Program-made: the position numbers and the translations under genes
The notes under the pieces: generated by a model
Told to the model about the DNA's origin: nothing
Databases searched by the model: none
What the model saw: only the letters and a program-made list of their open reading frames with translations
DNA from: Lewinellaceae bacterium
GTDB lineage: Bacteria > Bacteroidota > Bacteroidia > Chitinophagales > Saprospiraceae
DNA length: 64,000 bases
Assembly (NCBI GenBank): GCA_016710765.1
Contig: JADJUJ010000024.1
Coordinates: 2,919-66,918 of the forward strand
Direction: 5' to 3'
Part shown: piece by piece, positions 27,626 through 40,488 of the stretch
How positions within the stretch are numbered: position 1 is the stretch's first letter
Layout: each line of letters starts with the position of its first letter

Positions 27626-28637
27626 ATGAAACAATTGATTGGGGTAATCTTGCTTTTAGTAACCCTTTTCGGAGTAGGCTGCCAGCAGGATAAACCTGCT
27701 TATACCCATTTGGAGGGGCAGGCGCAAGGCACTACCTTTTCGATTATCTACCAGGATTCTCTGCAACGAGATTACGCCGCACCAATAGACAGTTTGTTTC
27801 GACTGATTGATAAAAGTATGTCGCTTTGGGACAGCACTTCCATCATTACCAGGATGAACCAAAATGATACTTCGATTCGGGCAGACAAACATTTGCAGCG
27901 TGTTTTTGATGTATCTGAAGCGGTATCTGCCTCAACTGGCGGTGCGTTTGATATTACGGTTGGGCCGCTGGTGCGCACCTGGGGTTTTAGTTATAAAAAA
28001 AATCTGCCCTTTCCCGATTCGGCTGTGGTAGACAGTCTTAAATCGTTGATTGGTTACCAAAAAGTGCATCTGGATAAGGGGCGGTTGGTCAAAGCCGACC
28101 CGAGAATGGAGATTGATTTGAATGCCATTGCACAAGGCTATACAGTGGATGTGATGGCCGAGTTTTTTGGAGGCACGGGGCGTGCACAACTACATGATAG
28201 AGATTGGAGGGGAACTCCGCACTGCTGGTGTGAATGAACAGCATGAGCCCTGGCTTATTGGCATTGATAAACCCATTGAAGGGGAGGGGAGGGCCTTGCA
28301 AGCCATTCTGAAATTGAGTGGCAAATCGCTGGCAACATCCGGGAGTTACCGTAAATTTATTGAGCGGGACGGGCATAAATTCAGCCACGCCATCAATCCG
28401 CAAACAGGCTTTCCGGTGGAACATCCCGTTTTAAGTGTATCGGTTATTGCCGATAATTGCACACTGGCTGATGCTTATGCTACGGCCTGCCTGGTGCAAG
28501 GATTGGAATGGTCGTTTGAATTGGCCAGGGAAAAGAAACTTGAAGTGTTTTGTATTTATGCCGACGACAACAACAAGATGCAAACGCAGGCAACGCCAGG
28601 ATTCGAACAATTGATGCAGGATCCGGAAAAACAGTAA
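27626..28637 (+). CDS. apbE: FAD:protein FMN transferase ApbE (lipoprotein); frame broken once
   Basis: Lipobox LFGVGC, FDITVGPL, AIAQGYTVD. ORFs 27626-28237 and 28167-28637 join as ..MAEFLEARGVHNYMIEIGGE.. if the T6 run 28163-28168 is T5. Confidence 0.85.
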
Positions 28638-29582: not shown

Positions 29583-30910
29583 ATGGCAACCTTGATTGTA
29601 GTAGCATTTATCATTGGCTACCTCTTAATTGCATTAGAACACCCCATCCACATCGACAAGGCCGCCTCGGCCGTTCTTACCGGAGTAGTTTGCTGGGTTT
29701 TACTCGTTTACGGATATGACGCGATGCCGGTCATGGCACACGGAACAGCAGAAGGCGCCTCCACCGACACGCACGATATTATTTCTCACGCTTTAGCAGA
29801 GCATTTGGGTGACATTTCCTCCATCCTGTTTTTCTTGCTTGGGGCTATGACCATTGTGGAACTTGTAGATGCCCACGATGGATTTAAGGTTATTACCGAC
29901 CGAATCAGAACAACCAATCGGGTCAGGCTGCTATGGATATTGTCCATTGTAGCTTTCTTCCTTTCCGCTGCCCTTGACAACATGACCACTGCCATTGTGA
30001 TGAGCGCTCTGGTTCGGCGGTTGGCTAAAGATAAAAGTGACCGTTGGATTTTGGCTGGTTTTGTCATCATTGCAGCCAACGCTGGTGGTGCCTGGTCGCC
30101 AATTGGTGACGTGACCACCATTATGCTTTGGATTGGTGGGCAGATCACAGCATTGAATATTGTGAAGATGTTGTTCATTCCTTCCATGGTCAGCCTGCTG
30201 GTACCGCTTGCTGTTGCTTCTTTTTTCATGAAAGGAGAAATAGACAAACCTGAAATTAAAAAGAAGCCGAGGGGCATTACCATACCACTCCCAGACAGCA
30301 ACAAACCATATTTTTACTCGGCGTGGGCAGCCTTCTTTTTGTGCCCATATTTAAAACCATTACCCACCTTCCTCCCTTCATGGGTATCATGCTGGGGGTT
30401 GGTACGCTGTGGTATGTTACTGAAATGATGCACAAAGGTCGGGAGCCTGAGGTACGCGGACGACTGACCGTAGCAGCTGTATTGCGCCGGATTGATACAC
30501 CCAGTATTTTGTTCTTTCTCGGCATCCTGTTGGCTGTTGCAGCACTGGAAACCTCCGGTCACCTGCACCTGCTGGCGTCTGGACTGAATGATGCTATTGG
30601 GAATATTTACATCATCAATACCCTCATCGGTATGCTTTCTTCCATTGTGGACAACGTTCCACTCGTGGCTGCCGCTATGGGTATGTATCCCATTTCCCAA
30701 ATTCCAGTGGACGATAAATTTTGGGAATTACTCGCTTACTGCGCCGGTACTGGTGGTAGTATCCTGATTATTGGCTCCGCCGCTGGCGTTGCCACCATGG
30801 GGATTTTGAAAATCGACTTCATTTGGTACCTCCGTAAAATCAGTTTCTATGCATTGATCGGATATTTTTCCGGTATACTGGTATACTATTTGCTTGAGAA
30901 CGTAATGTAA
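29583..30910 (+). CDS. nhaD: NhaD/ArsB-superfamily Na+/H+ antiporter; frame broken once
   Basis: Polytopic (LDNMTTAIVM, ANAGGAWSPIGDVTT, VDNVPLVAA). ORFs 29583-30428 and 30323-30910 join near the T5 run 30311-30315. Confidence 0.75.
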
Positions 30911-31033
30911 CTGGACTATCGCCTAAAGTTAAAGTCTGGGTCAGCACAGCTCGGTTGTATTGCCGTACTGTGAAACATTTTGAACCTTCTTGCGTTAGGA
31001 AGGAAGTCTTAAAGCATTGTGTACTACCAGAAT

Positions 31034-31689
31034 ATGACCAAACCAAATTACCTGCCCGTCCTAATCGCCTTTTCTGCATTCCTGTTGGGCGTATTACCAG
31101 CGTCTGCTCAATCCAAAGATTGGGCGCTGAAAAGCGAAAAAGAAGGCGTTAAAGTCTATTATCGCCAAACCTCTGGTGTTCATGAGGTAAAGCTACCACT
31201 TCCCTCAAAACCTCATTGAGTGGTATTCTTCACCTTTTTGCTGAAGTGGAACAATACCCGGATTGGGGCTATAAAGTTGTGGAGTCCAGGCTTATTCAAA
31301 AGAAATCGGATACCGACCTGATTTATTACACCCGTTTTGATTTTCCCTGGCCGCTCAGTGACCGGGATATTGTCATGCACTCAACCCTTATACAGGACCC
31401 TGTTACTAAAAAAGTAGTGTCAAAAAGTGTAGCAGAGCCCTGGCATATTGCAGAAGTGGCTGATGTGGTGCGGATTAAAGAGGCCCGTACCCAGTGGTCT
31501 TTGTACCCCAATGAAACGGGGTGGCTTTACCTGGAATACTACATTTATTCCAATCCAGGAGGGATGCTGCCCAGTTGGTTGGTAAACATGGCCATCGATG
31601 TAGGACCTTTGGAAACCATCAAGGCAATACGTGGAAAATTGGCTGACCCCACTTACCAGGCCGTAAAATTGGCGCATATCCTAGAATAA
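31034..31689 (+). CDS. START/lipid-binding domain protein, secreted; frame broken once
   Basis: Signal peptide, then DWALKSEKEGVKVYYR.. and ..EVEQYPDWGY... ORFs 31019-31219 and 31216-31689 join near the A-run 31189-31191. Confidence 0.65.
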
Positions 31690-31752
31690 GATAGGCTTTC
31701 AGGCAAACAATGCAGCAAAAGTGCTGTTCTTTTGTGGTTCAAACTCATACCA

Positions 31753-33573
31753 ATGGCCTACAAAAGTTTACGCGACGCCGTGCGCGATCTGGAAAACAAT
31801 TGCATGCTGCTGCGCATACGGGAAGAAGTTGACCCCAACCTTGAAATGGCAGCCATCCACAGGCTGGTTTATGAACGGCAAGGTCCGGCAATACTATACG
31901 AAAAAGTAAAGGGCAGTCCTTTTCAGGCAGTCAGCAACCTGTATGGAACCTTTCGTCAGACGGAATATTTGTTTCGGCACACACTTCCCCGCGTTAAAAA
32001 AGTAATCGAACTCAAGCAGGATCCTACGCGCCTGCTTCGGCAGCCCTTGCGTTATCTCAGTGCGCCTTTCACCGCCCTGTCAGCGCTTCCCATGCGCAGT
32101 ATTTTTAAAGCCCCGGTGCGGTACGGCACTACAACCATCGATCAATTGCCCCAGGTGAAAAGTTGGCCAATGGATGGTGGCGCCTTTATTACCCTGCCAC
32201 AGGTGTATACAGAGGACCCCGACACGCCTGGTGTGATGCATTCCAACCTAGGTATGTACCGCATTCAATTGTCGGGCAACGATTACATTCCCAACGAAGA
32301 AATCGGCTTGCACTACCAGATCCACCGCGGCATTGGTGTGCACCATGAAAAATACAACCGCCTGGATCAGCCTTTCCGTTGCAGCATTTTTGTGGGCGGA
32401 CTGCCGAGCCATGCCTTTTCTGCCATCATGCCGCTCCCGGAAGGCCTGAGTGAACTTACATTTGCGGGCATGATGGCCGGTCGCCGCTTTCGCCATCAAA
32501 TGCACGAAGGCTACCGCCTCTCTTCCGATGCTGATTTTGTGATTACGGGCGAAATTTTAAAAAATGTAAAAAAATCGGAGGGCCCATTTGGTGATCACCT
32601 GGGGTATTACTCCCTGGCCCACGATTTCCCTGTGATGCGGGTGCAAAAGGTGTACCACCGCAAAGATCCGTTGTGGCATTTTACCGCCGTGGGGCGGCCA
32701 CCAGCAGAAGACAGCAGTTTTGGCTGGCTGATCCACGAACTGGTGGCGCCGCTCACACCCGGCGAATTTCCGGGCTTGAAAGAACTGCACGCCGTGGATG
32801 CCGCCGGGGTACACCCCTTGCTGGTAGCCATTGGGCACGAGCGGTACATGCCTTTCCGCGAGCGCGTACCGGAAGAAATCCTCACCATCGCCAATCGTAT
32901 CCTGGGCAGTGGCCAAACCTCTTTGGCGAAGTTTCTCTGGATTGCCGCCAGTGACGATGACCCCAGCCTGGATACACACGATCTGCCCCGGTTTTTTCAG
33001 CATATGCTGGAGCGGGTAGATTGGACCCGCGACCTGCATTTTCAGACCCGCACTACCATTGACACCCTCGACTATTCCGGTTCCGGTTGGAACGAGGGCT
33101 CCAAAGTGGTGGTCGCTTGTCGGGGCGAAAAACGCCGTCAACTCAGCAAGATCTTACCAGAAGCCTTCAAACTGCCAGAAGGGTTCAGCGAGCCGCATTT
33201 TTGTATGCCGGGAATCCTGGCCATTAAGGCGCCTAGGTTTGAGGCTGAGTTGCCGGCGCGGGAGCAAGTGGAGGAATTCTGCCGCTTTATGGCCAATTAC
33301 AGCCTTGAGGGCATTCCTATGATCGTGTTGTGCGACGACAGCACCTTTACTGCAGCCACCCTTAACAACTTTGTATGGGTGACGTTCACGCGGGCCAACC
33401 CGAGTCACGATACCTATGGCATTCACTCCTTTGTTGCCAACAAGCACTGGGGATGCCGCGGTCCGCTGGTGATTGATGCGCGCAAAAAGCCGCACCATGC
33501 GCCGGAGTTGATCCCCGACCCGGAGGTAGACAAGCGGGCGGAGGCGATATTGGCACGAAACTGGAGAAGGTAA
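31753..33573 (+). CDS. UbiD-family (prenylated-FMN dependent) decarboxylase
   Basis: About 606 aa. The N-terminus YKSLRDAVRDLE...LLRIREEVDP..EMAAI and the overall pattern are typical of the UbiD family. Confidence 0.8.
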   Translation: MAYKSLRDAVRDLENNCMLLRIREEVDPNLEMAAIHRLVYERQGPAILYEKVKGSPFQAVSNLYGTFRQTEYLFRHTLPRVKKVIELKQDPTRLLRQPLRYLSAPFTALSALPMRSIFKAPVRYGTTTIDQLPQVKSWPMDGGAFITLPQVYTEDPDTPGVMHSNLGMYRIQLSGNDYIPNEEIGLHYQIHRGIGVHHEKYNRLDQPFRCSIFVGGLPSHAFSAIMPLPEGLSELTFAGMMAGRRFRHQMHEGYRLSSDADFVITGEILKNVKKSEGPFGDHLGYYSLAHDFPVMRVQKVYHRKDPLWHFTAVGRPPAEDSSFGWLIHELVAPLTPGEFPGLKELHAVDAAGVHPLLVAIGHERYMPFRERVPEEILTIANRILGSGQTSLAKFLWIAASDDDPSLDTHDLPRFFQHMLERVDWTRDLHFQTRTTIDTLDYSGSGWNEGSKVVVACRGEKRRQLSKILPEAFKLPEGFSEPHFCMPGILAIKAPRFEAELPAREQVEEFCRFMANYSLEGIPMIVLCDDSTFTAATLNNFVWVTFTRANPSHDTYGIHSFVANKHWGCRGPLVIDARKKPHHAPELIPDPEVDKRAEAILARNWRR

Positions 33574-33596
33574 AAATACCTAGCAAAGACATAGTA

Positions 33597-35093
33597 ATGA
33601 AGGCAAAAATCTTTATTAGTTATCGGAGGAATGATAGCCGTTGGCAGTCAAAAGCTATTTACGACGACCTTACCAAACATTTTGGTGAAAATGCAGTATT
33701 CAAAGATTTAGAGATAACTCCGGGACAAGATTTTGAAGAACGTCTAAGGCAGGAAATTGATGAATCAAATGTAATACTTTTATTAATCAGTAAAAATTGG
33801 ATGAAGGAGTTGAAAAAACGCCTTCATGGTGGTGAAAAAGATTATGTTCAATATGAATTGACAACTGCTATTTCACTAGGGAAATATGTAATTCCGATAT
33901 TATTTGATGATGTGAAAATGCCGAGTGATGGAGAGTTGCCAGATTTGCTAAAGCCAATTTCCAAATTAAATGCAATCTCACTACTGGACACCACTTTCAA
34001 AAATGGGATTGGAAAACTAATAGAGACAATTGAAGATTTTCTCAAAAAAACCTCCAGCCCTAAACGCATACTTGTATTGGATTCTGGGGGCATTAGGATT
34101 GGCGCTTTGCTTGGACAATTGCAACATATTGAGAACCGATTGCGATTGCGGTATGGCCGTGATGACTTTCGGTTGCAGCAATATTTTAATTTAATAATAG
34201 GATCTGGTGATAGTGCATTATTAGCCACACTATTGGCACAAGGAAAATCAGTTTCTGAAGTTTATAAAATACATGCCCATTTTTACGATGAAATCTACAA
34301 ACCAAATAGAAATAACACAGTAAAAATGTTTCGAATTTTTACTTCTATGCATGATAGTAAATTATTGGAATCGTTTTTAAACAGGATATTTTATGATTCA
34401 TCGATATTAGATGGCTCATTGGAAACGGGGTTATTGGTTTTTGTTTATGACTTGTACAATAAGTCATTGGTACCTGTTTCTAACATATCTTCTCTGAACA
34501 AAAATGTCGATTTAGAATTAAATTTCATGAAGAATTTTATTAGATCTTCATTTGCTACTCCATCTTATTTTAATCCATATAATTCAGAATCAGGGGTTTA
34601 TATTGATGCTTCAATTTATTGTGGCAGGAATCCTTCTTTAGCCGTTTTTCAAAATATTCAGAACAACCTTCAACAAGACGAATGGAAGATTGGTACAGAA
34701 AATCTTTTTATACTTTCTCTCGGGTTTGATTCAGTTGATCTGGGTTTAACGGTCAAAAAGGGAGACTCAAATTATAACGTTTTACAGTGGGCAAGTCTGC
34801 TCCCAAGTGTTTTGATGGGAACCATTGATCGCAATACCGCTTTACTTTTGCAGGGAATCAGTCAAGGAATGGTATTAGGAGTGCCAATTGATGATATTCT
34901 TTTTAACTCTGGAAGTAATAGTGCTAATAGCTTATTTACCTATCATCGGTTTAACTGCTCAACCAAGGGAATTAAGGCGAATGACATGTCTGAATATCAT
35001 TCACGGACTTTTGAAAAGTGGTTTGCTCATGGGAAATTGCAAATAGAAGGTCAATTAGTTCCATCATTCTTCCCTGCGTGGTTTGATGTATAA
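33597..35093 (+). CDS. TIR domain fused to a patatin-like phospholipase-fold domain (candidate defence protein)
   Basis: TIR features: KIFISYRRND (aa 4-13) and SKNWMKE (Glu71). Patatin-like features: LVLDSGGIRIG (aa 159-169), IIGSGDSA (aa 200-207), IDASIYCGRNPS. The gene is visibly AT-rich relative to both flanks. Confidence 0.75.
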   Translation: MKAKIFISYRRNDSRWQSKAIYDDLTKHFGENAVFKDLEITPGQDFEERLRQEIDESNVILLLISKNWMKELKKRLHGGEKDYVQYELTTAISLGKYVIPILFDDVKMPSDGELPDLLKPISKLNAISLLDTTFKNGIGKLIETIEDFLKKTSSPKRILVLDSGGIRIGALLGQLQHIENRLRLRYGRDDFRLQQYFNLIIGSGDSALLATLLAQGKSVSEVYKIHAHFYDEIYKPNRNNTVKMFRIFTSMHDSKLLESFLNRIFYDSSILDGSLETGLLVFVYDLYNKSLVPVSNISSLNKNVDLELNFMKNFIRSSFATPSYFNPYNSESGVYIDASIYCGRNPSLAVFQNIQNNLQQDEWKIGTENLFILSLGFDSVDLGLTVKKGDSNYNVLQWASLLPSVLMGTIDRNTALLLQGISQGMVLGVPIDDILFNSGSNSANSLFTYHRFNCSTKGIKANDMSEYHSRTFEKWFAHGKLQIEGQLVPSFFPAWFDV

Positions 35094-35320
35094 CCTACTT
35101 TATTACTCGATATTTTAAAATGGCACCTCTCATGTGGCTTTCCTAATTTGGGTTAATTCATAGAATGAAAAGTAGTGTGTAACCTACTCATATTTAGGTG
35201 TTCTAGTTTTTTGATGGCCAAACAATACAGCCAATTCCATTTTGAGGGAATCAGTTTTTGGTTGATTACCCAACCATTGTAAGCGCCCATGCCGTCTTTA
35301 TAAAAAAAACGACCTACACT

Positions 35321-35725
35321 ATGAAAGCAGCCCTGATTTTTCCCATACTTGGCCTCCTACTGTTCCTCTCCAATTGTAAAAAGGAGGAAAGTCCAGTATT
35401 AAGCGGCATCCAGATCCGTTTCCACAGTTATCTGGATCACGACATCGAGGACGCCTATTACATCTCCAATGCCGATACCATCCAGATTGGCACCATTCCG
35501 GCAAATGGCTATACCTCCTATTTGGAATTCCCTTCGTTTACAACGGGTGACGGAATCCCCATGGGTATGGCTTATGGCCGCATCGATACCTGTGCGGTAC
35601 GTGCCTGGGCGGGGCTATGGTGCGGCACCGGAGTAGATTTTACAGATTTGGAACCGGGCTCGTACACTTTGAGTATTGGAAATGGCGTGCAAAATCCGTC
35701 CTGGTACTGGCTAGGGTTTGAATAG
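35321..35725 (+). CDS. Small lipoprotein, function unknown
   Basis: Lipobox MKAALIFPILGLLLFLSNC. No family recognised. Confidence 0.55.
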   Translation: MKAALIFPILGLLLFLSNCKKEESPVLSGIQIRFHSYLDHDIEDAYYISNADTIQIGTIPANGYTSYLEFPSFTTGDGIPMGMAYGRIDTCAVRAWAGLWCGTGVDFTDLEPGSYTLSIGNGVQNPSWYWLGFE

Positions 35726-37113: not shown

Positions 37114-37188
37114 GGCCCGTTCGTCTAGGGGTTAGGACGCAGGATTTTCATTCCTGTAACACGGGTTCGATTCCCGTACGGGCTACCA
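37114..37188 (+). tRNA. tRNA-Glu (anticodon TTC), CCA encoded
   Basis: Acceptor ggcccgt/acgggct. Anticodon arm cagga-TT TTC AT-tcctg. T-arm acggg-ttcgatt-cccgt. Discriminator a, then cca. Confidence 0.9.
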
Positions 37189-37190
37189 AA

Positions 37191-37216
37191 GGCTACCAGA
37201 AATGGTGGCCTTTTTT
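37191..37216 (+). terminator. Hairpin plus T6 after tRNA-Glu (repeated after tRNA fragments 1-3)
   Basis: ggctacca-gaaa-tggtggcc followed by tttttt. The 5' arm duplicates the tRNA 3' end ggctacca. Confidence 0.7.
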
Positions 37217-37234
37217 CATGATACGCAACCTGTT

Positions 37235-37482
37235 ATGTCCTGGAAAGTATATGTATTAGAAAGTTTGCGATCTGGAGTTAGGTATGTCGGGATTAGTGAA
37301 GACTTGAACCGTCGCCTGAAAGAGCACAATTCAGGTAAAACAAAGTTTACTTCGGGCATATGCCTTGGGAGTTGTTGTATCAGGAGGAAACAGAAGATGC
37401 CGCTTCTGCAAGGGCCAGAGAAAAATATTTGAAATCGGCAGCGGGGCGAAGGTTTTTGGATAAAAAACTAAATCGAGAATGA
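37235..37482 (+). pseudogene. GIY-YIG (YhbQ/UPF0213-like) nuclease ORF, copy 1, frameshifted
   Basis: MSWKVYVLESLRSGVRYVGISEDLNRRLKEHNSG... The frame is lost at cttcgggcat (G3, versus G4 in copy 2). Confidence 0.7.
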
Positions 37483-37552
37483 TTTTCATTCCTGTAGCAC
37501 GGGTTCCCCGCCCGGATGACCGGTCGGACGGGGATTCCCGTACGGGCTACCA
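37481..37552 (+). other. tRNA-Glu 3'-half copy 1 (anticodon loop to CCA) with a 26-27-nt GC-rich insert in the T-loop
   Basis: gattttcattcctgtagcacgggttc[cccgcccggatgaccggtcggacgggg]attcccgtacgggctacca. No 5' half is present. Confidence 0.85.
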
Positions 37553-37598
37553 AAGGCTACCAGAAATGGTGGCCTTTTTTCATGATACGCAACCTGTT

Positions 37599-37943
37599 AT
37601 GTCCTGGAAAGTATATGTATTAGAAAGTTTGCGATCTGGAGTTAGGTATGTCGGGATTAGTGAAGACTTGAACCGTCGCCTGAAAGAGCACAATTCAGGT
37701 AAAACAAAGTTTACTTCGGGGCATATGCCTTGGGAGTTGTTGTATCAGGAGGAAACAGAAGATGCCGCTTCTGCAAGGGCCAGAGAAAAATATTTGAAAT
37801 CGGCAGCGGGGCGAAGGTTTTTGGATAAAACTAAATCGAGAATGATTTTCATTCCTGTAGCACGGGTTCCCCGCCCGGATGACCGGTCGGACGGGGATTC
37901 CCGGGCACCAAAGGCTACCAGAAATGGTGGCCTTTTTTCATGA
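37599..37943 (+). CDS. GIY-YIG nuclease ORF, copy 2 (C-terminus altered by a short A4 run and reads through the next tRNA fragment)
   Basis: Same core sequence. ..LDK then the frame differs because the run is ggataaaacta (A4) rather than A6. Confidence 0.7.
   Translation: MSWKVYVLESLRSGVRYVGISEDLNRRLKEHNSGKTKFTSGHMPWELLYQEETEDAASARAREKYLKSAAGRRFLDKTKSRMIFIPVARVPRPDDRSDGDSRAPKATRNGGLFS
37844..37910 (+). other. tRNA-Glu 3'-half copy 2, same T-loop insert, degenerate acceptor end
   Basis: ..ggggattcccgggcacca instead of ..attcccgtacgggctacca. Confidence 0.8.
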
Positions 37944-37956
37944 TACGCAACCTGTT

Positions 37957-38196
37957 ATGTCCTGGAAAGTATATGTTTTAGAAAGTTTGCGATCTGGAGT
38001 TAGGTATGTCGGGATTAGTGAAGACTTGAACCGTCGCCTGAAAGAGCACAATTCAGGTAAAACAAAGTTTACTTCGGGACATATGCCTTGGGAGTTGTTG
38101 TATCAGGAGGAAACAGAAGATGCCGCTTCTGCAAGGGCCAGAGAAAAATATTTGAAATCGGCAGCGGGGCGAAGGTTTTTGGATAAAAAAAACTAA
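37957..38196 (+). CDS. GIY-YIG nuclease ORF, copy 3
   Basis: 79 codons ending ..RRFLDKKN* (A8 run). Confidence 0.75.
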   Translation: MSWKVYVLESLRSGVRYVGISEDLNRRLKEHNSGKTKFTSGHMPWELLYQEETEDAASARAREKYLKSAAGRRFLDKKN

Positions 38197-38205
38197 ATCG
38201 AGAAT

Positions 38206-38277
38206 GATTTTCATTCCTGTAGCACGGGTTCCCCGCCCGGATGACCGGTCGGACGGGGATTCCCGTACGGGCTACCA
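38206..38277 (+). other. tRNA-Glu 3'-half copy 3 with the T-loop insert
   Basis: Identical to copy 1 over the fragment. Confidence 0.85.
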
Positions 38278-38323
38278 AAGGCTACCAGAAATGGTGGCCT
38301 TTTTTCATGATACGCAACCTGTT

Positions 38324-38572
38324 ATGTCCTGGAAAGTATATGTTTTAGAAAGTTTGCGATCTGGAGTTAGGTATGTCGGGATTAGTGAAGACTTGAACCG
38401 TCGCCTGAAAGAGCACAATTCAGGTAAAACAAAGTTTACTTCGGGACATATGCCTTGGGAGTTGTTGTATCAGGAGGAAACAGAAGATGCCGCTTCTGCA
38501 AGGGCCAGAGAAAAATATTTGAAATCGGCAGCGGGGCGAAGGTTTTTGGATAAAAAACTAAATCGAGAATGA
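38324..38572 (+). CDS. GIY-YIG nuclease ORF, copy 4
   Basis: 82 codons ending ..RRFLDKKLNRE* (A6 run). GIY-YIG hallmarks: KVYVLES...YVGIS.., R..EHN.G, and Glu in ..YQEE... Confidence 0.8.
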   Translation: MSWKVYVLESLRSGVRYVGISEDLNRRLKEHNSGKTKFTSGHMPWELLYQEETEDAASARAREKYLKSAAGRRFLDKKLNRE

Positions 38573-38642
38573 TTTTCATTCCTGTAGCACGGGTTCCCCG
38601 CCCGGATGACCGGTCGGACGGGGATTCCCGTACGGGCTACCA
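38571..38642 (+). other. tRNA-Glu 3'-half copy 4 with the T-loop insert
   Basis: Identical to copy 1. Followed by a different (probably ancestral) terminator. Confidence 0.85.
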
Positions 38643-38647
38643 AACAT

Positions 38648-39362: not shown

Positions 39363-40488
39363 TCAATTCTTGACCACCCTCGCCCTTCCCACCAGCACTC
39401 CGTTGCGTTGCAACACCAGTTCATACACGCCTGGCGGCAAAGCGGCAACCGGAAGGGAAACATCATGCTCACTGGCAGCCGCCGTCACAGTCTTTTCCAG
39501 CACCATACGGCCCTGCACATTGATCAGCTGTAATTGATAGGCAGCGGTTGCGTCGTCGGTGAAATGTACAAATAAGGTATGCTGGACAGGATTTGGGTAG
39601 GTAGATACTTCATAGACTGCCGGTGTATAGGTGGCAGCAGGGGGAGGCATGACTTTGTATTGAACGTCGAGTACTTGGTTTTGGCTTGTATTGAGCGTAC
39701 ATATAGCGATGGCTTCCTTAGACACATCGTTCAAAAAATGAAAGGTCGTGATGGTATCCGTGCCCAGCGGCAGGATTTGCTGGCCGCCTATCGTGGAAAT
39801 ATCTATCCAGCCCAGCGGCGCGACTTTTACATCCACGGCAGTTGATCGGTATTCGGTTTGTTTTTTTCGCAGCACGTCAAAAGTACCGCCGGGGATGTCT
39901 AGTGTGCCATAGGCATCTATGGTACTTACACGTTGATACGTAACCCTGATACGGAAAGAATCGGCTGTCGGCACCAGGTTCAGCAGCACAGGGGGCGCAA
40001 TGGGTGCATCGAAGGCAGATAATATATTACTAGTAGATTGTTTGATATCAAAAAAGTTGGCAGGCGCCCATGATACTTCGAGGGGTGGTTTTTTTCAAAC
40101 AACAAATTCAAGCCCAATCCCAATTGATCCAGGCCAAAATAACCCATATCAAGCACCTGAGTACCGGTGATTTGCCCATAAACTTCCGAATTGGAGTTCA
40201 GTGGATGGTACAGGATCGACGCGCCTGGGAAGGACCCGGAAGCCGTACCCGATTGTGGATTTTGTATGATCTGGTCCCAGTATTGGGTGGGTTGCAGGTC
40301 GCTCAGGTTCCAATGCTGGTCGCCGCCGGGCGGGTGAAAATCTGGTTGATGGCTCCTGGCTGGTTGCCAAAAGCAAAGTGCAGCGTGTCGCCAACCACCG
40401 GAAAAACCGAATTGGTGATGGTGATTTGCGCGGTTGTAGGACCCATAAGTGCCCAAAAAAGGAGGTGGAAAAATGCCAGTCGTTTCAT
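39363..40488 (-). CDS. Secreted protein with a T9SS C-terminal sorting domain; body split over three frames
   Basis: Signal peptide MKRLAFFHLLFWALMGPTTAQ. The C-terminal domain reads YPNPVQHTLFVHF...LINVQGRMV...LPPGVYELVL. Confidence 0.65.

Follow-up and report, generated by a model that had tools for sequence, protein, structure and literature searches.

Does a gene that joins a TIR domain to a patatin-like domain encode an effector with two enzymatic activities, or has one of the two halves been turned to another use? This question is raised by a single gene at positions 33597-35093 (forward strand, stop codon included) of a 64,000-nucleotide stretch of contig JADJUJ010000024.1 from a Lewinellaceae bacterium (assembly GCA_016710765.1), hereafter referred to as the window, in which an earlier note made from the sequence alone (the original prediction) had seen a candidate one-protein defence system. 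The results presented here indicate that its 498-aa product is, almost certainly, a TIR enzyme to which a pseudo-patatin domain is joined, and not an effector combining nicotinamide adenine dinucleotide hydrolase (NADase) and lipase activities. On balance, and with a confidence only a little above even, we favour a reading in which the gene is a horizontally acquired, stand-alone TIR NADase of the abortive-infection type, controlled by its non-catalytic pseudo-patatin module. A role in defence is what we infer from the domain types, the horizontal acquisition of the gene and the defence-island context of some of its relatives.

The open reading frame (ORF) starts with ATG and runs uninterrupted for 498 codons, just as the original prediction had it; at its own composition (35% GC, 0.076 stop probability per codon), a stop-free stretch of this length would arise by chance with P ~8e-18. 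The proposed fusion of a TIR and a patatin-like domain in one polypeptide is borne out by Pfam profiles scoring above their gathering thresholds for both halves: TIR_2 matches residues 5-141 (57.7 bits, cut-off 28, E 2e-15), accompanied by a match to the TIR profile (25.1 bits, cut-off 21.3), and Patatin matches residues 159-341 (34.1 bits, cut-off 27.7, E 4e-8). Among defence models, the best match is PADLOC PDLC00758, a model of phospholipase effectors of CBASS (cyclic oligonucleotide-based anti-phage signalling system), which covers residues 154-407 (E 5.6e-20). The short motifs quoted for the protein all lie where they had been placed (KIFISYRRND at residues 4-13, SKNWMKE at 65-71, LVLDSGGIRIG at 159-169 and IIGSGDSA at 200-207). 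An AlphaFold2 (AF2) model built from an alignment of 43 sequences reached a predicted local distance difference test (pLDDT) score of 90.7 and a predicted template modelling (pTM) score of 0.86, and Foldseek returned AbCapV, CapE and patatin structures as top matches of its C-terminal half and the SARM1 TIR domain as that of its N-terminal half.

Full-length relatives of this protein are scarce. Word-indexed searches of 5.8 billion proteins gave as full-length matches only P0001, from the same species, and P0002 (48% identical), and repeating word-indexed searches with the C-terminal half or with an alignment of six fusion proteins returned only these two and TIR-only proteins. An exhaustive hidden Markov model search of 1.84 billion cluster representatives identified three full-length fusion clusters, represented by P0002, P0011 (502 aa) and P0012 (492 aa), the latter two about 28-30% identical to the window protein. 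We refer to the window protein, P0002, P0011 and P0012, which combine TIR_2 with a patatin predicted to be dead, as Group A, and to P0028, P0058, P0111 and P0036 (568-597 aa), in which an N-terminal TIR_2 domain is followed by a patatin keeping the lipase motifs GxSxG and D-G-[GAS], as Group B. The same patatin family is also found fused to a DUF4062/TIR-like N-terminus (P0125) and to a large N-terminal region with no assigned domain (P0055, P0101). Closest in sequence to the C-terminal half are uncharacterised standalone patatins of about 370-390 aa (120-160 bits), which end in HFPxxFD and keep DGGGxRG, GGTSTG and DGG..NNP. Since these score 126-146 bits against the NCBIfam CBASS_lipase model, with a cut-off of 200, they represent a CapV-like sister family and not CapV proper. 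Three active-looking members of this sister family (P0039, P0050 and P0079, ~560 aa) carry a C-terminal extension of ~170 residues with weak, sub-threshold matches to the PGDYG domain (Pfam PF14083).

In a rough neighbour-joining tree of the patatin domains, tentative given its long branches, Group A, Group B and P0036 fall in separate clades, which suggests more than one TIR-patatin fusion event. A scan of metagenome contigs with a four-protein alignment, using TIR patterns only, detected 80 TIR-only loci and no new fusion; in a scan of viral contigs all six matches were partial and confined to a single domain, none being a fusion, and searches of 72,556 sequenced plasmids and 50,697 phage records likewise turned up no homolog of the fusion. 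Our literature search found neither "TIR-patatin" nor "patatin-TIR" in use as a term. We conclude that the architecture is real, rare, uncharacterised and suggestive as to mechanism, and that it represents a putative TIR effector whose control domain would be novel and of pseudoenzyme origin.

The TIR domain (residues 1-145; positions 33597-34031) is of the SARM1 type. SARM1 TIR is the top sequence match of this half in the PDB (phmmer E 6e-8; ~27% identity over residues 4-145), and Foldseek superposes the model on SARM1 TIR structures with template modelling (TM) scores of 0.84-0.88 and root-mean-square deviations of 2.1-2.7 Å; pLDDT is ~90-97 for residues 11-150 and 82 for residues 1-10. The FISYRR motif (33612-33629), held in common with SARM1, is invariant in Group A apart from an S/N exchange, and the TIR domain is the best-conserved part of the protein relative to P0002 (64% identity, against 47% in the patatin core and 31% in the C-terminal region). 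The original prediction had assigned the catalytic role to Glu71, an assignment that does not survive alignment: P0012 has Ile at this position, and the alignment with SARM1 points instead to Glu87 (codon 33855-33857), with YVQYE87L lying opposite WVHKE642I and the Glu in an xVxxE context. Glu87 is invariant in Group A and kept in all the Group B fusions, and the matching Glu is nearly invariant among 104 TIR relatives. From these alignments we infer that the TIR half is a predicted NAD+ glycohydrolase with Glu87, the equivalent of SARM1 E642, as its catalytic residue. SARM1 activity depends on TIR oligomerisation; the window protein, a bacterial protein devoid of the ARM and SAM regulatory domains of SARM1, would instead be regulated through its pseudo-patatin. 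This TIR subtype occurs elsewhere fused to unrelated C-terminal modules (FGE-sulfatase, TPR, nSTAND and others), a portability that fits a division of labour in which the TIR domain is the effector and the remainder of the protein the sensor.

The type of TIR domain also bears on the possibility that the protein makes a signal, as in Thoeris, with a cADPR isomer or another NAD-derived messenger acting on an effector encoded in trans or on its own pseudo-patatin as a self-amplifying switch. The window protein is, like the Thoeris TIR proteins, a bacterial TIR protein, and it shows weak partial matches to ThsB and to the TIR model of Thoeris type III, ThcB4; moreover, the standalone sister patatins are often encoded near separate TIR genes, so that signalling from a TIR product to a patatin in the ancestral multi-gene islands is conceivable, and the fusion could be its Rosetta stone. 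These matches, however, span only ~60-70 residues and fall far below the model cut-offs (37.8 against 220), and the TIR domain is nearer to the NAD-consuming SARM1 type than to ThsB. No ThsA (SIR2/Macro-SLOG) gene was found among the tested neighbours, and the window is devoid of receiver genes, whether of the ThsA, SLOG, Macro or another type, with none conserved beside the relatives either. We consider this signal-making alternative improbable.

The C-terminal half (residues 153-498; positions 34053-35090) is a CapV-like patatin-fold domain, predicted to be catalytically dead. In the PDB, phmmer matches it to the cyclic GMP-AMP (cGAMP)-activated phospholipase CapV (E 2e-6), and Foldseek matches residues ~153-498 to the AbCapV-cGAMP filament 8zr9 (E 3e-15, TM 0.77), to filaments of CapE with cyclic UMP-AMP (cUA) and to the plant patatin 1oxw (E 5e-14), the best structural matches being 8zr9, 9jeh and 9ion (TM about 0.7-0.77). 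The fold has thus been kept, whereas the motifs of lipase catalysis have not. The nucleophile elbow (34200-34214) reads G-S-G-D-S, and aligns column by column with GTSIG of CapV and the canonical G-T-S-T-G. With neither insertion nor deletion separating the YFDLI strand from the helix that follows, Gly204 occupies the position of the catalytic Ser. The original prediction had rightly called this elbow non-canonical and had left open whether the Ser was shifted or lost: loss is what the alignment supports, and a shift is not, the nucleophile position being Gly in the window protein, P0002, P0011, P0012 and P0125. The same position retains Ser in 17 of the 18 motif-aligned standalone relatives.

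The oxyanion loop is degraded as well: canonically DGGGxRG, it reads DSGGIRI in the window protein (34080-34100), DNSGMRT in P0002, DSSAARG in P0011, DECSVNG in P0012 and DGAGVRT in P0125. The block IDASIYCGRNPS (residues 336-347; 34602-34637) had been likened to the catalytic Asp motif (canonically DGG..NNP), a likeness that holds insofar as D337 is present, but the block reads D-A-S against D-G-[GA] and the position is not conserved in the clade, being Asp in P0012, Glu in P0002, Asn in P0011 and Ser in P0125. Patatin profile scores agree, at 34 bits for the window protein, 32 for P0011 and 26, below threshold, for P0012, against ~107-110 in the standalone relatives. The domain is nevertheless full-length and invariant at many positions although the proteins share just 28-48% identity, and the window protein (ending FFPAWFDV) and P0002 keep the C-terminal ending of the family as FFPxWF[DM]V; that it is still full-length and conserved after losing its lipase motifs argues for its maintenance in a non-catalytic role. 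To judge from these motifs, lipase chemistry was almost certainly lost specifically in the clade of the window protein, which would then be neither a lipase nor a two-weapon effector.

An effector that degrades phospholipids as well as NAD+ would need the patatin half to work through Ser206 or Ser203, paired with D337. Such an architecture exists in the wider family, as P0028, P0058, P0111 and P0036 keep GxSxG and DG[GAS], and in the four Group A proteins Ser206 is as invariant as Gly204. A +2 register shift placing Ser206 as nucleophile is, however, unlikely: Gly204 sits exactly at the elbow with no indel to displace it, Ser206 puts a bulkier residue where the small +2 Gly belongs, and P0125 has Ala there. 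With the dyad Asp replaced in P0002 and P0011, the oxyanion loop eroded as far as DECSVNG in P0012 and the Patatin score of the window protein so far below those of the standalone relatives, dual activity is, for this protein, about as improbable as a signal-making TIR. Group B fusions, by contrast, are plausibly true dual effectors on the evidence of their intact motifs. Outside the TIR_2 fusions, a standalone variant (P0084, 376 aa) has GGTNTAA in place of GGTSTG, with Asn at the Ser position, and is the single exception among the 18 standalone relatives; P0125 (565 aa; DUF4062 N-terminus; L092, 3532-5229) has the elbow GGTGPAA. As both are dead outside these fusions, pseudo-patatin domains may have arisen repeatedly in the patatin family.

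The base composition and insertion site of the gene reveal its foreign origin. Its GC content is 34.8% (29.7% at third codon positions), against 54.6% (62.5%) for the ubiD gene and 53.3% (68.5%) for the fatty-acid hydroxylase gene of the window, confirming the contrast with GC-richer neighbours that had been remarked upon. Upstream lies a UbiD-family decarboxylase gene (31732-33573, forward strand; Pfam UbiD_N, UbiD and UbiD_C), the stop codon of which is separated from the start codon by a 23-nt spacer (33574-33596) forming the left edge of the insertion; downstream, a non-coding spacer of 227 nt with 36% GC (35094-35320), the right part of the inserted segment, precedes a small lipoprotein-like ORF (35321-35725, forward strand, 50% GC) with no Pfam or PADLOC match. 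Both spacers agree with the distances originally given, and the two flanking genes are native neighbours that mark the insertion site.

A scan with the UbiD protein, in which each species was represented by a single genome, yielded 80 ubiD loci, nearly all from Saprospiraceae/Lewinellaceae metagenome-assembled genomes, with UbiD 64-83% identical. None of these 80 related loci encodes a TIR-patatin relative. Empty sites are of two kinds: in L014 and L019 ubiD is followed by the fatty-acid hydroxylase gene after 82 and 165 nt, and in L017 and L022 by a homolog of the lipoprotein gene (48% and 39% identity) after about 75-85 nt. Because the lipoprotein gene follows ubiD directly in the latter two, the inserted segment can be delimited as the gene plus its two spacers, ~1.7 kb. 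The gene also occupies this site in another strain of the species, on a contig with the label Bacteroidia_JADKCL01 (L002). The suggested single-gene insertion is therefore upheld by the synteny comparison: the gene is a presence/absence polymorphism at a conserved site, not a conserved syntenic housekeeping gene, and its GC content of 35% in 54% GC surroundings, together with its absence from the 80 related loci, identifies it as horizontally acquired. Searches around the insertion for flanking direct or inverted repeats or att-like sites gave only short, chance-level matches, and no integrase or transposase adjoins the gene. The only nearby tRNA gene is a tRNA-Glu, 2 kb downstream. No significant terminator was detected, and promoter and terminator scans gave the counts expected of shuffled sequence, the sigma-70 consensus used being unsuited to Bacteroidota.

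TIR NADases, among them SARM1, TIR-SAVED and TIR-STING, are activated when ordered assembly creates composite active sites. In the reading we favour, the resting protein would be a low-order oligomer that holds its TIR domains apart. A trigger, whether small molecule, phage protein or membrane or lipid cue, would act on the pseudo-patatin domain, which would then assemble into higher-order oligomers or filaments like those of cGAMP-bound CapV and cUA-bound CapE; this assembly would arrange the TIR domains head-to-tail, giving rise to composite NADase active sites, and the ensuing depletion of NAD+ would arrest or kill the infected cell. CapV, in which no dedicated sensor domain exists, offers the precedent: filament formation is driven by 3'3'-cGAMP bound between three of its protomers, and the S58A and D192A substitutions abolish hydrolysis while filaments still form (PMC12480259). 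By analogy, the best-supported account is that the pseudo-patatin would retain the trigger-dependent self-assembly of its family and use it to switch on the TIR domain. As no cyclase is present, the trigger may be something other than cGAMP, for instance a protein made by the phage, a cue from lipids or the membrane, or a product of the TIR domain.

Several observations weigh against this account of an assembly-switched defence protein. The AbCapV residues F147, K149, D159 and E207, which contact cGAMP, correspond to P293, S295, D305 and N353 in a low-identity and therefore approximate HMMER alignment; three of the four positions differ, only D305 matching D159, and by this alignment a cGAMP site is not conserved. 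The alignment underlying the AF2 model consists mostly of canonical patatins, which biases the model towards the canonical fold, and the invariance of Ser206 in Group A leaves room for an unconventional nucleophile. Moreover, the neighbours of the gene in the window (UbiD, lipoprotein, fatty-acid hydroxylase, START and CBS proteins) form a housekeeping neighbourhood and not a defence island. Finally, the copies in the two strains differ at 8 nt (3 synonymous and 5 non-synonymous), too few differences for purifying selection within the species to be demonstrable.

The original prediction could not assign the architecture to a named system, and neither can we. The closest functional analogy is with the CBASS effectors TIR-SAVED (Cap12) and TIR-STING, in which an N-terminal TIR NADase is followed in one polypeptide by a C-terminal sensing and polymerising module, as would be the case here. 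In the window protein, however, this module is a patatin-fold pseudoenzyme; as it has neither a SAVED nor a STING domain, the protein is not a member of either system. The PADLOC SAVED_TIR match is limited to TIR residues 3-71, and no cGAS/DncV-like nucleotidyltransferase or other signal-generating gene adjoins the window gene or its relatives. CapV and CapE provide the best fold and PADLOC match of the C-terminal half, and CapV senses its ligand itself and forms filaments (PMC12480259), but the window protein scores only 57.5 bits against the CBASS_lipase model, differs in its catalytic Ser, oxyanion loop, unconserved Asp and cGAMP contacts, and carries a TIR domain that CapV lacks. Since it has no cyclase and falls below the equivalog cut-off of 200, it is not CBASS; nor does it belong to Thoeris. 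The standalone sister patatins have the same domain length and a similar C-terminal ending and often lie near TIR genes; unlike the solitary window gene, they belong to islands of several genes, and they keep canonical motifs and have no fused TIR. Group B shows the same domain order, including the TIR Glu, and likewise comprises lone genes with no conserved partners, but has a linker 50-60 residues longer and intact GxSxG and Asp.

Other readings of the gene fare worse. Eukaryotic or competitor cells are targets of TIR proteins from bacteria and of patatin-like toxins, ExoU and VipD among them, and VipD and PlpD are among the lower Foldseek matches. On an Arcobacter plasmid, adjacent DUF4062-fragment, patatin and TIR genes accompany a DUF4071 gene, and the patatin and TIR genes were annotated as virulence factors (PMC6690266). 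A secreted or injected toxin or virulence factor is, however, very unlikely here: the TIR domain itself forms the N-terminus, leaving no signal peptide, the lipase is catalytically degenerate, no immunity gene is conserved alongside, and Pfam detected no Por_Secre_tail domain, a C-terminal sorting domain of the type IX secretion system that other proteins of the window do carry. One of these is encoded by an ORF at 39363-39989 (reverse strand), which fits a Bacteroidota host. Equally unlikely is a decaying, functionless relic of a once-functional dual effector, for which the lost lipase motifs, the rarity of the family, the 5:3 ratio of non-synonymous to synonymous differences and the presence in the window of several other genes that look frameshifted might speak, but which is at odds with an uninterrupted 498-codon ORF at 35% GC and with the same inactivation in four full-length lineages that keep their TIR catalytic residues, a pattern that across such divergent sequences points to long-term maintenance after the loss of lipase chemistry.

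The absence of a partner gene (cyclase, SAVED, SLOG or other) beside the window gene had been noted from the sequence, and it stands: no PADLOC match was obtained among 10 neighbouring ORFs, and a tblastn search of the window with TPR-S, SLATT, STING and further kinds of partner gave no match. The relatives show no shared partner either. An all-against-all comparison of flanking ORFs from the window and six loci (four fusions, one standalone sister and the flankless contig of P0011, which is too short for genomic context) recovered nothing in common except the gene itself. At the fusion loci that have flanks (L001, L090, L092, L093 and L178-L180), none of the called genes has a cyclase-type Pfam family, and the Pfam-blank neighbours at the loci of relatives had no PADLOC cyclase match.

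The settings of the relatives are diverse. The P0002 gene, at 36% GC in a contig of 55-60% GC, adjoins an Sbno/SNF2-type helicase. P0012 (GCA_044224315.1) is found in the vicinity of AAA_15/21 and DUF4365-dynamin genes, along with several ORFs that lack annotation, and P0125 among CHAT-TPR-S, TIR-NB-ARC-WD40 and nSTAND genes; these two sit in defence/conflict islands. P0028 is found beside trypsin, WD40 and AAA_12 genes, and P0036, P0058 and P0111 (the last carried by GCA_017792465.1) among unrelated housekeeping genes. At the P0002 locus (L001), the helicase consists of AAA_34 and Helicase_C_4 domains, and a truncated 101-aa TIR_2 ORF (2672-2977) lies ~380 nt upstream of the fusion gene; the segment from 2.4 to 5.0 kb is low in GC within a 58-60% GC contig, and may be a small TIR-rich mobile island.

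Standalone sister patatins are instead encoded in islands (L094, L176 and L177, the loci of P0018, P0046 and P0041, and a Rhizobium plasmid, L181) together with SLATT/DUF4231, DUF4071 (MAP3K_TRAF_bd)/TPR-S, trypsin or CHAT protease and TIR genes, and no cyclase was detected in these four islands by Pfam or PADLOC. The recurring order is SLATT/DUF4231, then the CapV-like patatin with active motifs, then DUF4071 (MAP3K_TRAF_bd) with TPR-S, a neighbourhood that is apparently undescribed; TIR proteins, TPR-S-trypsin and a deaminase also occur in the same islands, as does a TIR-STING gene in L176. As TIR and this patatin family co-occur as separate genes, the fusions look like Rosetta-stone events.

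A bolder form of the favoured reading, which we put forward only tentatively and judge to have well under an even chance, sees the pseudo-patatin as a new class of TIR-activating sensor and scaffold, a third solution beside SAVED and STING, derived from a CapV-like lipase in which a single domain already both sensed the ligand and formed filaments. It would act as an integrated decoy or direct sensor that binds a phage-derived molecule, for example an inhibitor directed against patatin effectors, a lipid or a nucleotide-like signal. Its polymerisation would follow and set off the depletion of NAD+ with no need of a cyclase. The outcome would be an autonomous one-protein immune system, created when two effectors that are found together in SLATT / DUF4071-TPR-S / TIR islands were fused.

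Single-protein TIR fusions are well known as a class, and the known switches of TIR NADases form a small set (SAVED, STING, NLR/STAND and SAM-ARM). If the favoured reading is true, a patatin lipase effector domain would have been recycled as a non-catalytic regulator of a TIR effector, adding a new type of sensor or scaffold to this set. The proposal joins the ligand-induced filamentation of CapV and CapE with the need of TIR domains for ordered assembly into a testable prediction, and a candidate defence gene of 1.5 kb that is autonomous would be easy to test heterologously. Group B with its intact lipase, Group A with its dead one and the standalone lipases make up a natural comparison set, from which one might learn how immune islands of several genes are condensed into systems of a single gene.

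Two further features of the window were observed away from the gene. Upstream, three overlapping pairs of adjacent ORFs in different frames resemble halves of single genes (27626-28237 and 28167-28637; 29583-30428 and 30323-30910; and 31019-31219 and 31216-31689, the last being START-like), suggesting frameshifts that reflect either sequencing or assembly errors or pseudogenes. Downstream, the tRNA-Glu gene (37114-37188) is followed by a tandem array at 37169-38644, which begins inside the 3' end of the tRNA gene and comprises 4.1 copies of a 367-nt unit at 98% identity. Each unit contains a small ORF with a GIY-YIG domain, so that the array looks like a GIY-YIG cassette that has been amplified in tandem at the tRNA gene.

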